Origin: an uncultured Candidatus Saccharibacteria bacterium
GTDB lineage: Bacteria > Patescibacteriota > Saccharimonadia > Saccharimonadales > JAGQNJ01
Direction: 5' to 3'
NCBI GenBank assembly: GCA_964426845.1
Contig: CAYRSA010000002.1
Span: forward strand, 34,495-98,494
DNA length: 64,000 nucleotides
In this document: positions 34,528 to 50,437 of the stretch, piece after piece
Layout of the letters: each line of letters starts with the position of its first letter
How positions within the stretch are numbered: the stretch's first letter is position 1
Program-made: the position numbers and the translations under genes
Notes under the pieces: model-generated
What the model saw: only the letters and a program-made list of their open reading frames with translations
Database searches by the model: none
Told to the model about the DNA's origin: nothing

Positions 34528-34604
34528 TGGTGTCGGTGGTTGGAATTGAACCAACGACCTCAGGCTTATGAGTCCTGCGCTCTAACCAACTGAGCTACAC
34601 CGAC
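34528..34604 (-). tRNA. tRNA with anticodon CAU, probably elongator tRNA-Met, CCA encoded
   Basis: The reverse complement folds as GTCGGTG-TA-GCTC-AGTTGGTTA-GAGC-G-CAGGA-CTCATAA-GCCTG-AGGTC-GTTGG-TTCAATT-CCAAC-CACCGAC-A-CCA. The G1-C72 pair rules out an initiator. Confidence 0.85.
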
Positions 34605-35158: not shown

Positions 35159-35233
35159 CGCGGGGTGGAGCAGCGGCAGCTCGCGTGGCTCATAACCACG
35201 AGGTCGCAGGTTCGAGTCCTGCCCCCGCAACCA
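35159..35233 (+). tRNA. initiator tRNA-fMet (CAU), CCA encoded
   Basis: CGCGGGG...CCCCGCA-A-CCA acceptor with the C1xA72 mismatch, identical to the E. coli initiator acceptor stem. Anticodon loop is CTCATAA. Confidence 0.92.
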
Positions 35234-47358: not shown

Positions 47359-47378
47359 GGTTTAATCATACAACATCT

Positions 47379-47449
47379 CATAGACAACCCCGCTCCTTAA
47401 GCTTGGAGGAAGCTCAGCAAATAAAACTGAGCAGAGTTGGCGGTACTAG
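47379..47449 (+). repeat. decayed partial copy (copy 0) of the 185-nt module
   Basis: ATAGACAACCCC ... GAGCAGAGTTGGCGGTACTAG aligns with the 3' half of copies 1 and 2. It ends in E-Q-S-W-R-Y-stop, but indels break the frame. Confidence 0.6.
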
Positions 47450-47466
47450 AAGCTCATTTGTGAAGA

Positions 47467-47495
47467 TTGACAGATCAAACGTTTTTGCTTATAAT
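47467..47495 (+). promoter_or_regulatory. perfect consensus sigma70 promoter
   Basis: TTGACA, a 17-nt spacer, TATAAT, then 7 nt to the ATG at 47503. Confidence 0.7.
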
Positions 47496-47502
47496 TAGTT
47501 TC

Positions 47503-47724
47503 ATGGATAGAATAATGGACGGCGAAAAGATAGTTAAGGGTTTATCAGCTGCAGCTTCTTGTATCGCTGATGGTGCTGAACCAGAGACTCTAGTTGATGA
47601 TCAAAAGGCTGCATTAGGAATAGTTGCTGGTATGCCCCCAGTAGTTGCTGAGCCGTTTATTGTAGCTGCTGCACTCGATAGCGCTTATGATGATTTGTTT
47701 GGTGATGACGGTCTAAGTTTCTAG
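47503..47724 (+). CDS. hypothetical acidic protein (73 aa), probably leaderless
   Basis: In-frame ATG at the predicted transcription start site (TSS). The ORF-track start at 47467 is the -35 hexamer itself. Confidence 0.5.
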   Translation: MDRIMDGEKIVKGLSAAASCIADGAEPETLVDDQKAALGIVAGMPPVVAEPFIVAAALDSAYDDLFGDDGLSF

Positions 47725-47736
47725 TAACAAAATTCG

Positions 47737-47921
47737 TGGTGGCGATAAAGCGAAGACTTTTGAACCTTTGGAGTCTATTGTGGAGTGGCTGATTTCTAAC
47801 CCTAATCCTGCGTGGTCAAAGCAGCTGAAAGAAGCTAGCTACGTAAAGATCGAACAGGGTTGGCGTTACTAGAAAAGAGTAAGATAAAGAGCGTTGAACC
47901 TAACCACTTGCTATTACTTGT
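47737..47921 (+). repeat. 185-nt module, copy 1 (contains a 44-codon frame at 47738-47872 with no start codon)
   Basis: Aligns end-to-end with 49022-49214. Identical blocks are TGGTGGCGATAAAGCGAAGA and AGAGTAAGATAAAGAGCGTTGAACCT. Confidence 0.85.
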
Positions 47922-47994
47922 AAGTGGTGATAAAGTATTTTCTATTATGATATTCAGCCAGAAGCACCAGTTGGAACTATTCCTCAGCCTACAT

Positions 47995-48080
47995 GGGCTG
48001 TGCTTCACTATGGTTGAAGCCACTGAGTAAAACTCAGTCAGCACAGCCCCAATAACAGGCTTCAACCGAAGTCTGTTTTT
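47995..48080 (+). promoter_or_regulatory. attenuator/riboswitch-like leader with mutually exclusive helices
   Basis: A:A' is 10 bp (47995-48004 / 48040-48049). B:B' is 10 bp (48012-48021 / 48058-48067). Hairpin C is at 48022-48038. A terminator-like hairpin at 48054-48077 reuses B' and is followed by a T-rich run. Confidence 0.45.
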
Positions 48081-48099
48081 AATTGTAAGGAGAAATGAA

Positions 48100-48282
48100 A
48101 TGTACGGAGAAGGATACCCTGCTCGTAAAGCAGTAGAAGTAGAGCACATCAGTGATGGTGTGTACGTCTGGTATGACCCAGATGAATATGGAATTGGTCA
48201 TGAACACTATGGAGAGCAACACCCAGCCATGACAGAACAAGGTCAACCTGACCAGGATCAAACAACAAACGAGGTACAATAA
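48100..48282 (+). CDS. small acidic His/Glu-rich protein (60 aa)
   Basis: AAGGAG RBS 8 nt upstream. It ends 15 nt before alaX. Confidence 0.55.
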   Translation: MYGEGYPARKAVEVEHISDGVYVWYDPDEYGIGHEHYGEQHPAMTEQGQPDQDQTTNEVQ

Positions 48283-48297
48283 TACAAAGGAGTGTAT

Positions 48298-49017
48298 ATG
48301 ACAGAACTAATCTACATGAACGATTTCGACGTAGTTACTTGTGAAGCCAGCGTTGTCAAAACAGAAGAGCACGAAGGCAAAGATGTAATCGTATTGGATC
48401 AGACGTGCTTCTATGCCAAGGGTGGCGGTCAGGACTTTGACCAGGGTGTCATTAAGTCAGAGGACGTAGAGTTTCAAGTTGAAGCTGTCTTCTTTGTAGA
48501 CGGCGAAGTGAAACATATTGGATCATATACTACTGGCAAGTTTGCAGTCGGAGATAAAGTCGCTTGTGAGGTTGATGTAGAAAGACGCAACCTCAATAGT
48601 CGACTTCACTCAGCTGGTCATGTGATAGATATGGCAGTACGAGAGTTGGGATGGGATTGGAAACCAGGCAAAGGTGCACACTATCCTCACATGGCTTTTG
48701 TGGAGTACGAAGGTCCTTACGACGCCGAGGAAAAGCAAAAACTCATAGAGCAGTTACAAGATACTCTTACCAAGATGATTAAAGCTGGCTCTACTAACAG
48801 CATTAAGTTTATGACACCAGAAGAGATGGCTGAGACTGGAGCATTTGTGCCTGATAACTTACCAAAGGGTAAGCCGTCACGAGCAGTCTTCTATGATGAC
48901 TTTGCTGTTCCTTGCGGAGGCACGCATGTTAAAGACATTAAAGATATTGGTTCGGCAACTATAACTAATATGAAGCGAAAAGATGGCAATGTGCGAGTCA
49001 GTTACAAGGTTGACTAG
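48298..49017 (+). CDS. alaX: AlaX-type Ala-tRNA(Ser/Gly) editing protein (free-standing AlaRS editing domain)
   Basis: HSAGH (HxxxH) and CGGTH (CxxxH) zinc motifs; about 240 aa. AAAGGAG sits 5 nt before the ATG at 48298, whereas the ORF track starts at a GTG at 48292. Confidence 0.8.
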   Translation: MTELIYMNDFDVVTCEASVVKTEEHEGKDVIVLDQTCFYAKGGGQDFDQGVIKSEDVEFQVEAVFFVDGEVKHIGSYTTGKFAVGDKVACEVDVERRNLNSRLHSAGHVIDMAVRELGWDWKPGKGAHYPHMAFVEYEGPYDAEEKQKLIEQLQDTLTKMIKAGSTNSIKFMTPEEMAETGAFVPDNLPKGKPSRAVFYDDFAVPCGGTHVKDIKDIGSATITNMKRKDGNVRVSYKVD

Positions 49018-49021
49018 TCTT

Positions 49022-49214
49022 TGGTGGCGATAAAGCGAAGAGTTTTGAACTTTTGGCTGGTGTCGTAAACTGGCTGATAGATAACCCTAATCCTGACTGG
49101 AACTTACAGCTTAGAGAAGCCAGTAAAGTTTCTACCGAACAGAGTTGGCGATACTAAAGAAGAGTAAGATAAAGAGCGTTGAACCTCTAATGCTTGCTAC
49201 TTGTCGCCCAGACA
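49022..49214 (+). repeat. 185-nt module, copy 2 (contains a 44-codon frame at 49023-49157 with no start codon)
   Basis: See copy 1. Confidence 0.85.
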
Positions 49215-49245
49215 ACTATATTAAGGATGAAATAAGGAGGAATAC

Positions 49246-49920
49246 ATGGCAGAGCCAACACTAGAAGTAGCGAGAGGTGGATTAGTACCCGTAGCAGCAG
49301 CTATCGAACAACCCTTAAGAGATGGTCATAATCTCCACGCCTTCCAGTCTGGTGGCGGTCTTAGAGTAATCCGCATAGAAGATGCGGCCGAAGAATTAGT
49401 CGGTTATGGTGAAGCCCTTCAAGTAGAAGAGGCTCTCGCTCATGCTGCTCTAGATTACTTACTCGGTCATGAAGATTACGACCAACAATATAATGGCGAT
49501 GGTGCGAGATACCCACACTACCTGACAGGTACAACGGAGGTAAGTTCTCCCCTCGACGGTCACTTACGACGTGGAGCAACCTTTGACGCTTATAAGTCTC
49601 GTACAAGCGACCTAATTGTCTGTTCACTTGCTGGCATATCTTTCCCACCAGACATCCCTGAGGGAATGCAAGAACGAGTGGTTGCATCTATGGACGTAGA
49701 AACCTTTGAAGAACGTGGCATAACCTATCAAGCAGAACCTTACCAGTTCCCAGGCAATGGAGAATGGGGTATCTCAGTCAAAGTTATCGATAATCCTAAA
49801 GGTATTTCAACCATGTCTTATCGCTACACCAAGACTGGTGAAGGCGATACTTTTGAAAAAGCTGTGAGAGAAGCGTTTGAAGCTCCTGAGGTCGAGCTTA
49901 TGGACGAACAGGAAGATTAG
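49246..49920 (+). CDS. hypothetical acidic protein (224 aa)
   Basis: AAGGAGG RBS 6 nt upstream. No recognisable motif. Confidence 0.6.
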   Translation: MAEPTLEVARGGLVPVAAAIEQPLRDGHNLHAFQSGGGLRVIRIEDAAEELVGYGEALQVEEALAHAALDYLLGHEDYDQQYNGDGARYPHYLTGTTEVSSPLDGHLRRGATFDAYKSRTSDLIVCSLAGISFPPDIPEGMQERVVASMDVETFEERGITYQAEPYQFPGNGEWGISVKVIDNPKGISTMSYRYTKTGEGDTFEKAVREAFEAPEVELMDEQED

Positions 49921-50097
49921 TCGCTAAATCTAGCTTGTACGAAGCCAAATTGACCTCAAAAGACGTCGCACAATAACGATTGGATGACCAACACATACAG
50001 GGGTGACGAGCTTGTTTTTCCAGAAAAAGGCAAAGTCAAGGCCTGATCAGTTTTGTCCCACCCCTGTTAAAAACCTATTATGCCATATGGAAATTCG

Positions 50098-50437
50098 TGG
50101 TGGGGCGAGAAGGAATTGAACCTTCGACCAATCAGTTATGCTTACCACTACAACTTTCGTTGCCTCTTTCGTGTTTGTGGTCTGGACTGTCTCTTCGTCC
50201 GCTGGTTAGCGGATGCCTGCCGTTCAGTCTCTACACCTTTCCTGGTTAAACCGGGACTTGGCTCGGGATTACCAATCTTATTAAAGATAAGGCTTCCCCG
50301 AATTTGACAGGATATACTTACCGGTTACCCGCGTAAGCAGCCCTAAACATTTTGGCATATCTAACACAGAATATGGGCTTAGACTTAGCCAAATTGTTAA
50401 CTCAAGCCGACTGCTCTAACCACTGAGCTACCGCCCC
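50098..50437 (-). tRNA. tRNA with anticodon CAU interrupted by a group I intron; non-initiator, possibly tRNA-Ile2 (lysidine)
   Basis: The exons (50437-50405 and 50140-50098) join into a 76-nt cloverleaf: GGGGCGG-TA-GCTC-AGTGGTTA-GAGC-A-GTCGG-CT|CATAA-CTGAT-TGGTC-GAAGG-TTCAATT-CCTTC-TCGCCCC-A-CCA. Confidence 0.85.
50141..50404 (-). ncRNA. group I intron (IC3-like, 264 nt, no ORF) in the anticodon loop between U33 and C34
   Basis: It follows an exonic U and ends in G. Core blocks UGUCAAAUUCGGGGAAGCC, CCCGAGCCAAGUCC and GAAAGGUGUAGAGACUGAACGGCAGG resemble the bacterial tRNA-intron catalytic core. Confidence 0.8.

Follow-up and report, generated by a model that had tools for sequence, protein, structure and literature searches.

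Integrative elements that cut their own integrase gene on insertion have been described in archaea. The SSV-type 'suicidal' integrases of archaeal viruses and plasmids (SSV1, pTN3, pT26-2) target tRNA genes and have attP within the int ORF, so that the int gene is split by integration; the att sequence also encodes part of the protein, and tandem insertion can rebuild hybrid integrase genes (PMC7253208, PMC8371274). This trait has been called exclusive to archaea and to tyrosine recombinases (PMC7253208, PMC8371274). A second relevant system is that of the tycheposons of Prochlorococcus, which insert beside tRNA genes, push older elements outward, carry variable cargo and leave behind fragmented integrases and partial tRNA repeats; a tyrosine recombinase is present in 910 of 937 of them (10.1101/2020.12.28.424599).

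Here we analyse an array of repeated modules that lies beside a tRNA-Met gene within a 64-kb stretch of DNA (hereafter the window, meaning the whole stretch), together with related islands that carry an integrase gene. Like the SSV-type elements, these islands would have attP within the integrase ORF, a tRNA as the target, and the two pieces of the gene flanking the island. Unlike the SSV-type integrases, which are tyrosine recombinases (PF16795) of hyperthermophilic archaea, the enzyme here would be a large serine recombinase (LSR) in Patescibacteria, and the cut would remove only the last ~44 of ~565 residues (~8%). In 20 of the 24 loci with a tRNA over its 3' end, moreover, the large fragment is still an intact ORF, and so may not be inactivated by integration. 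Stacking at a tRNA and variable cargo are shared with tycheposons, but where the tycheposon scar is a partial tRNA copy, the scar here would be a 165-nt integrase tail that has 6–8 nt in common with the tRNA.

Among phage-type serine integrases, those that have been studied keep attP apart from the int coding sequence and seldom target tRNA genes. The recombinase considered here has the same domain set, short core and 5-bp shift of the outer motif as the phage LSRs (A118/LI, Bxb1, phiC31, SPbeta), yet differs from those studied in that attP would lie inside the int gene and in having a tRNA as its target. An attP near the 3' end of a phage gene is found in the mycobacteriophages BPs and Brujita, the basis of their integration-dependent immunity: integration alters the C-terminus of the product, and the 3' piece of the gene is stranded at the other junction. 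In these two phages it is the repressor gene that is split, and they integrate by a tyrosine recombinase, whereas in our islands the gene with the internal attP and the stranded 3' piece would be that of the integrase. The arrays also resemble integron cassette arrays in their co-oriented, short and promoter-poor cargo units, their repeated site of ~100–170 bp and their strain-variable cargo, but there is no intI and no hairpin-forming attC, and the anchor is a tRNA 3' end. They differ from classical tyrosine-integrase tRNA islands in that there is no displaced tRNA 3' segment, only TGGTGG being common to the two and no T-arm pairing being present. In the literature searched, we found no account of a serine integrase whose gene is split when its element integrates, and no description of these Saccharibacteria arrays, though such absence is not proof of novelty.

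Results

Layout of the window array and its target tRNA

The array consists of a decayed module, a 76-aa ORF, module 1, a 60-aa ORF and an AlaX-like gene, module 2, a 224-aa ORF, a 133-nt block and the tRNA-Met gene, in that order. The features, with the roles that we assign to them below, are as follows.

~47362..47476, + strand: decayed third module copy (tblastn matches 47365-47397 and 47396-47446; repeat family)
47477..47736, + strand: cargo segment 1; 76-aa ORF at 47494-47724, no Pfam match
47737..47901, + strand: module 1, putative attL-type junction (direct repeat, frame, half-site geometry)
47737-47742, + strand: core TGGTGG of module 1
47760-47765, + strand: P'-type half-site motif TTGAAC of module 1
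47738-47872, + strand: 44 codons and stop of module 1, read as a stranded integrase gene end
47875-47901, + strand: conserved 27-mer of module 1, AAGAGTAAGATAAAGAGCGTTGAACCT
47902..49021, + strand: cargo segment 2; 60-aa ORF at 48100-48282, AlaX-like editing protein at 48298-49017
49022..49186, + strand: module 2, putative attL-type junction (direct repeat, frame, half-site geometry)
49022-49027, + strand: core TGGTGG of module 2
49045-49050, + strand: TTGAAC of module 2
49023-49157, + strand: 44 codons and stop of module 2, likewise read as stranded
49160-49186, + strand: conserved 27-mer of module 2
49187..49964, + strand: cargo segment 3; promoter-like site at 49194-49222, 224-aa ORF at 49246-49920, no Pfam match
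49965..50097, no strand assigned: 133-nt block abutting the tRNA 3' end, common to the window and locus L001
50098..50437, - strand: tRNA-Met(CAT), putative integration target (Rfam Intron_gpI, intron-less orthologues, exon alignment)

Modules 1 and 2 form a 165-nt direct repeat and are 78% identical. The decayed copy corresponds to module residues 14–44, with a frameshift and a stop, and its final CGG TAC TAG lies at 47442-47450; it lacks the 5' third of the module and with it the TGGTGG/P' part. It would be the oldest scar. Directly 3' of it, where it would drive the 76-aa ORF, is a promoter that matches the sigma-70 consensus at 12 of 12 positions (TTGACA-17-TATAAT, 47467-47495), the TTGACA of which may derive from the terminal TTGAAC of the decayed module. 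In the second cargo segment, a 15-nt inverted repeat and a terminator-like hairpin with a T-run (48007-48077) lie in the 200-nt leader before the 60-aa ORF and AlaX, and the AlaX stop codon falls 4 nt ahead of the next TGGTGG.

The tRNA-Met gene, 0.9 kb downstream of module 2, is interrupted just 5' of the anticodon by a group I intron (50141-50404; Rfam Intron_gpI, 61.5 bits). Its exons, 50405-50437 and 50098-50140, were defined against intron-less orthologues (tRNA-Met being called in L002, L003 and L013). The L001 orthologue also carries a group I intron, which is absent from L002, L003, L013 and L014. The CCACCA 3' end of the tRNA reads as TGGTGG on the + strand at 50098-50103, and a B'-type half-site motif, TTGAAC, lies at 50116-50121. 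A longer, 13-nt match between the left edge of module 1 and the tRNA end (AAATTCGTGGTGG, 47730-47742 versus 50091-50103) was set aside, as it is not significant alone (blastn E = 0.29) and only TGGTGG is general.

The 133-nt block between the third cargo segment and the tRNA is non-coding and ~82% identical to L001 3323-3458, while the module and cargo to its left differ between the two loci. Within it are a long imperfect hairpin (CAGGGGTG...CACCCCTG), a promoter-like TTGTCC-17-TATTAT and, in the module's frame, an ATG at 50088. The block has no Rfam match and no match to an integrase C-terminus profile. That it might be a relic of an integrase 3' end, as a comparison of MEIRGG with EFQSGG by eye would suggest, was rejected when a profile of 22 integrase C-termini found no match in the window.

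A conserved reading frame with no start codon

An earlier note on this DNA, made from the sequence alone, had described the module as preserving a 44-codon frame with a coding-type substitution pattern but no start codon, and on each of these points our reanalysis agrees with it. Its translations of 47738-47872 and 49023-49157 were reproduced exactly by direct reading and tblastn, and direct reading shows that the two frames share their stop position. In neither copy is there an ATG, GTG or TTG between the upstream in-frame stop and the frame, that stop being TAA at 47714-47716 in module 1, seven codons before the GGT, and TGA at 49011-49013 in module 2, three codons ahead. All that is present is an ATT at 47732 and an internal TTG at 47768/49053.

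Where a codon differs at a single base between modules 1 and 2, the change falls once in the first, four times in the second and eight times in the third position, with all eight third-position changes silent, exactly as had been counted; ten further codons differ at more than one base. The Arg codon before the terminal Tyr is CGT, CGA and CGG across the three copies, again as noted. For this pair pS is 0.40 and pN 0.23, and the bias persists in a larger set: among 17 intact module copies from seven loci, pN is lower than pS in 136 of 136 pairs, with a median dN/dS of 0.28. The remaining two frames of the module have no pN<pS bias and contain 3–7 stops. The coding-type substitution pattern thus exceeds chance.

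Both ends of the module behave differently from its interior. The first 20 nt (TGGTGGCGATAAAGCGAAGA) are identical between the copies at the DNA level, as are the last 27 nt (AAGAGTAAGATAAAGAGCGTTGAACCT), which lie 3' of the stop codon, whereas the interior is saturated with synonymous change. The ends are therefore constrained as DNA, not merely as codons. We also observed a second TTGAAC motif at the sharp 3' edge of each module (47894-47901 and 49179-49186), found 25–37 nt past the module stop codon in related loci and absent from 6 of 22 array modules. In L030 and L036 this second motif and the P' motif both read TTGAGC, having changed together.

Related arrays in Saccharibacteria

The window was compared with one metagenomic contig and three Saccharibacteria genome bins, located through the module peptide, and with two further contigs, all of which carry arrays of the same kind. 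The number of modules is three in the window, one each in L001 and L004, eight in L002, five each in L003 and L013, and three in L014. The arrays share the flanking genes FMN reductase, HxlR and Dus and an orthologous tRNA-Met(CAT); every one of them is on the 3' side of this tRNA, with its modules on the opposite strand. In L014 (7850-10840), the array and tRNA-Met are inverted relative to the FMN-reductase/HxlR/Dus flank when compared with all other loci.

Across 22 copies from the seven loci, homology starts exactly at TGGTGG in every copy and mostly stops exactly at GTTGAACCT, beyond which the flanks are unrelated. To the left of the junctions, 40 nt of flank are virtually devoid of information content and contain no conserved P half-site. 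Five of the 22 copies carry stops or frameshifts and six have lost the 3' motif, so that many array copies are decaying; in L002, the most decayed copies are not those farthest from the tRNA.

The cargo differs in every genome, with essentially none common to the arrays, which meant that shared cassettes could not serve as a guide to which flanking module moves with the cargo. It includes a copper-resistance operon, a DMT transporter, many unknowns and, judged from translated sequence, an aminoglycoside-kinase-like gene and an ABC-F gene; types that can be named at these sites are AAA-ATPase genes of defence type, a CdiA_C toxin domain and the AlaX editing protein. The cargo often comes within 0–12 nt of the next TGGTGG.

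Neither tblastn nor an HMM of the last 92 residues found an integrase homologue within the 64-kb window, and no recombinase was present among the ten Pfam-scanned ORFs around its array. The same two types of search found no integrase gene or relic in the seven Saccharibacteria arrays, and the called-gene tables of the related loci list no integrase adjoining them. An integrase-free array of three modules also occurs beside a tRNA-Leu(CAG) in an unrelated lineage (L062 9359-11950, also L063), with an inositol phosphatase-family gene and a CdiA_C toxin-domain gene as its cargo.

The module frame continues a serine recombinase gene

Modules do occur with an integrase in other islands, those of more distant relatives. 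At the tRNA-proximal end of islands L009 and L011 is an ORF of 521–525 aa that reads into the opposite-strand tRNA, running about 20 nt into it. Pfam finds Resolvase, Recombinase and Zn_ribbon_recom domains in the L009 ORF and Resolvase in that of L011, which identify it as an LSR; its closest solved relatives are the SPbeta and TP901-1 integrases. A metagenome scan with the LSR protein gave 47 related loci, and the hosts of LSR islands and modules are Saccharibacteria/Patescibacteria. An opposite-strand tRNA overlaps the 3' end of the LSR gene in 24 of the 47, most of the others being contigs that end before the 3' end of the gene. The overlapping tRNAs are those for Met, Leu (TAG, CAG, GAG) and Pro (GGG, CGG, TGG), and the frame that enters the tRNA at T followed by GGT is open for 513–533 codons in 20 of the 24.

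Sixteen of these islands (17 with L064) contain exactly one module, 1.5–11 kb upstream of the LSR gene and on the same strand, and the 16 have exactly one P-type and one B-type site each. When the integrase is joined to the module at their shared core, the result is one continuous ORF to the module stop in 15 of 15 cases, and the database ORFs P0021, P0093 and P0107 physically span the integrase-module junction. In an AlphaFold model of the integrase C-terminal fragment with the tail, the tail forms one helix, with a pLDDT of 55–68, which is low confidence.

In two loci, L030 (1-142) and L008 (1-410), an integrase 3' fragment runs in frame into a module. Such tandem or hybrid junctions show that an integrase 3' end can be restored, in chimeric form, by a subsequent insertion. 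Immediately upstream of the LSR gene there is a conserved ORF of 52–91 aa with no Pfam match (L009 11688-11903, L011 13634-13792, L064 14263-14421, and others). It clusters together in nine loci, has a length of 52 aa in both L011 and L064, where its position is the same, and is a candidate directionality factor or regulator.

Attachment-site geometry

The module and its tRNA share a prefix of 6–8 nt in 20 of 20 pairs, this being TGGTGG in the window, and beyond this core there is no long block of identity, the next 17 nt of the module being different. The core tracks the tRNA: Met targets have TGGTGG, Leu targets TGGTGC or, in a variant, TGGTAC, and Pro targets TGGTCG; residue 2 of the module is accordingly G, A, T or R. 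In all 20 pairs, both window modules included, the first base of a TTGAAC motif, which in the tRNA is the antisense of the T-loop, is at position 24 of the module and position 19 of the tRNA.

Rutherford et al. reported that the motif bound by the zinc-ribbon domain of serine integrases lies 5 bp nearer to the site centre in attB than it does in attP (PMC3783163), and the 5-bp shift of TTGAAC between module and tRNA matches this attP/attB rule. By this rule the first ~30 nt of the module would be a P' half-site and the tRNA end a B' half-site, which in turn would make the module an attL junction and the tRNA side attR.

The module in protein databases

Profile searches with the module peptide found 31 matches in an exhaustive pass through 1.84 billion representative proteins and 39 among 5.8 billion protein clusters. 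Apart from three long repeat proteins, to which the profile aligns repeatedly at a 16-residue repeat, the matches are ORFs of 35–105 aa with no Pfam domain, nearly all of them in single-member clusters. The match to the module is always C-terminal, and the N-terminal extensions are unrelated. Members of the family share 40–50% peptide identity; their indels are codon-sized, the Trp residues are invariant and the position of the stop is conserved. Selection at the protein level is real, but it cannot have acted on these short ORFs.

The earlier note had raised the possibility that the 44-aa sequence is the C-terminus of a full-length protein family. The profile searches returned short ORFs only, and we discarded the idea of a long family after the search of 1.84 billion proteins and two indexed searches gave the same outcome. 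Nor did we find a full-length, unsplit integrase with the 44-residue tail in the 5.8 billion protein clusters or in the phage, plasmid and viral collections; a free circular form was likewise absent from viral contigs, phage records and plasmid records.

Discussion

Probable stranded integrase gene tails

On the sequence evidence above, we think it very probable that the modules are the tails of integrase genes, stranded at attL junctions. The elements concerned would be driven by an LSR whose gene runs across the element's own attP. Crossover would take place in the core of 6–8 nt that is the antisense 3' end of the tRNA gene (here TGGTGG, from the CCACCA of tRNA-Met), and which would encode Gly-Gly in the integrase frame. 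Integration would then cut the integrase gene, such that ~520 codons stay beside the tRNA, terminating a few codons into it, while the far end of the island, attL, receives the 44 terminal codons with their stop and ~30 nt of 3' flank. The window would hold three such scars, one of them decayed, with unrelated cargo between them, stacked against tRNA-Met by repeated insertion.

This explanation would account for the unusual properties of the module. A start codon would be missing since the fragment opens at the crossover core, and the substitutions would be of the coding type because divergence accumulated inside functional integrase genes. The first ~30 nt would be fixed as DNA because they are a predicted P' half-site, where the recombinase binds. 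The offset to the preceding gene would vary because the left neighbour is unrelated DNA, and the copies would decay because nothing maintains them after insertion.

The elements of this model that are backed by data are the homology of the window modules to integrase-linked modules, the continuity of the frame, the covariation of core and tRNA, and the geometry of the half-sites. Given that there is no integrase in the window or in the seven arrays, the link to the integrase runs through module homology in other lineages; the window modules have 40–49% peptide identity to modules of those lineages, with HMM E-values of ~1e-20. Steps that we infer are a free circle in which the gene is whole, the order of insertion and the route by which the integrase was lost.

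Two readings offered in the earlier note are partly borne out. It had suggested target-gene 3' ends left by serial integration, and serial integration scars beside a tRNA are indeed what we propose, although the stranded ends would be those of the integrase and not of the target. It had also suggested silent 3' cassettes of a gene located elsewhere; the module would be the 3' end of an LSR gene that is absent from the window, but a pilS-like mechanism is unsupported. Its third suggestion, an unconventional initiation, finds no support, given the copies with in-frame stops and frameshifts and the database ORFs of 35–105 aa, which are almost all single-member and have unrelated N-termini.

How integrase-free arrays are built

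We are clearly less confident of how arrays without an integrase arise. Recombination of attP with attR is not known for serine integrases, so that stacking at one tRNA needs regeneration of attB. The junctions themselves are clean, with cargo ending 0–12 nt from TGGTGG and no P half-site, which suggests that a mechanism of greater specificity than random deletion is at work. The window and L001, which share the 133-nt block beside the tRNA and yet have different cassettes, do not fit a model of simple insertion at the tRNA end, and the position of the most decayed copies in L002, which are not those farthest from the tRNA, also counts against serial insertion. We also considered a second attL-like site inside the island, through which the integrase could exit and the cargo stay behind, but rejected it given the single P-type and single B-type site of the 16 islands.

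A further possibility, which we hold only tentatively and judge doubtful, is that cutting of the gene is a built-in switch. Only the circular form or a tandem junction would then give full-length enzyme, which would perform integration; the tail-less enzyme would have altered activity, stability or directionality; and the stranded tails would still be usable, both as attL sites and as donors of alternative integrase C-termini. Were this so, Patescibacteria would possess a tRNA-anchored cassette platform run by a serine recombinase, integron-like in its role.

Alternative explanations

Of the alternatives to stranded integrase tails, the one that survives best, though we regard it as unlikely, is that the arrays are an active integron-like platform. 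The modules would then be live attC-like sites at which a recombinase encoded elsewhere in the genome shuffles, excises and captures integrase-free cassettes at the tRNA, and they would owe their coding signal to the site's origin inside an integrase gene. Such a platform would explain arrays of 1–8 module-cargo units with cargo unique to each genome, the lack of any integrase relic in eight integrase-free arrays (counting the tRNA-Leu array L062/L063), and the frequent closeness of cargo to the next TGGTGG. Perfect conservation of the 20-nt and 27-nt module ends fits it too, but is equally explained by constraint in active elements before insertion. Other observations are harder to reconcile with it: no junction has a conserved left half-site, so a cassette circle would be without a complete attP; no recombinase of the family is encoded in the window; and truncated or stop-bearing modules, with 6 of 22 lacking the 3' motif, are what would be expected of decaying scars. 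As for a true integron attC site, this candidate was dropped because the module has no inverted repeats and no hairpin.

It is very improbable, in our view, that the module is a free-standing small protein of ~46–53 aa, translated in at least some copies. Some copies do have an ATG 2–6 codons upstream (L001, as MNVKPCGG..., P0001; also P0003, P0009 and P0029), and the peptide is conserved throughout a broad family. A start is missing, however, from the two window copies and from most of those in arrays, and several copies have in-frame stops; the N-terminal extensions are mutually unrelated, and nearly all clusters have a single member. Only those ORFs that chance to have a start reach the protein databases. 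Conservation starts at the recombination core, and extends upstream only where the integrase gene is attached.

We find it extremely hard to sustain a host origin of the modules, as 3' ends of a protein-coding target gene that were displaced when, at each integration, a copy borne on the element took their place. This is a common pattern for elements that enter the 3' ends of genes, and the copies are co-oriented, as it would predict. But no host gene body precedes any array, the upstream neighbour varies by locus and is mostly on the opposite strand, the modules equal the cargo segments in number with the tRNA as an extra site, and the upstream continuation of the frame is the integrase gene.

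Finally, we give virtually no credence to a structured RNA or hairpin-type DNA site with an incidental open frame: although the ends are conserved as DNA beyond the needs of codons, the module has no inverted repeats within it and no Rfam match, folds no better than shuffled sequence on either strand (single-sequence z-scores of -0.7 and +0.9), has a consensus fold of -4.7 kcal/mol with 0 compensatory pairs, and is under purifying selection that is strongly frame-specific. A tRNA- or tmRNA-like fragment was likewise rejected, as the reverse complement of the module has no T-arm pairing and Rfam finds nothing.

Implications and further observations

If the modules are stranded integrase tails, then a body of annotation noise would be explained, namely the hundreds of patescibacterial 'hypothetical' ORFs of 35–105 aa, mostly in single-member clusters, which would be such tails. 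Self-splitting integrases would be extended to bacteria and to serine recombinases. The arrays would constitute a hypervariable, tRNA-anchored cargo site in Saccharibacteria, whose genomes are tiny and have few recognised routes of gene gain. The islands would also provide natural attP/attB pairs for many related integrases with different tRNA targets, and the 6-nt core that tracks the target may help in the study or engineering of serine integrase specificity.

The window also contains two further tRNA-Met(CAT) genes, at 34528-34604 (- strand) and 35159-35233 (+ strand), which are divergent, lie 0.55 kb apart and have no modules nearby.
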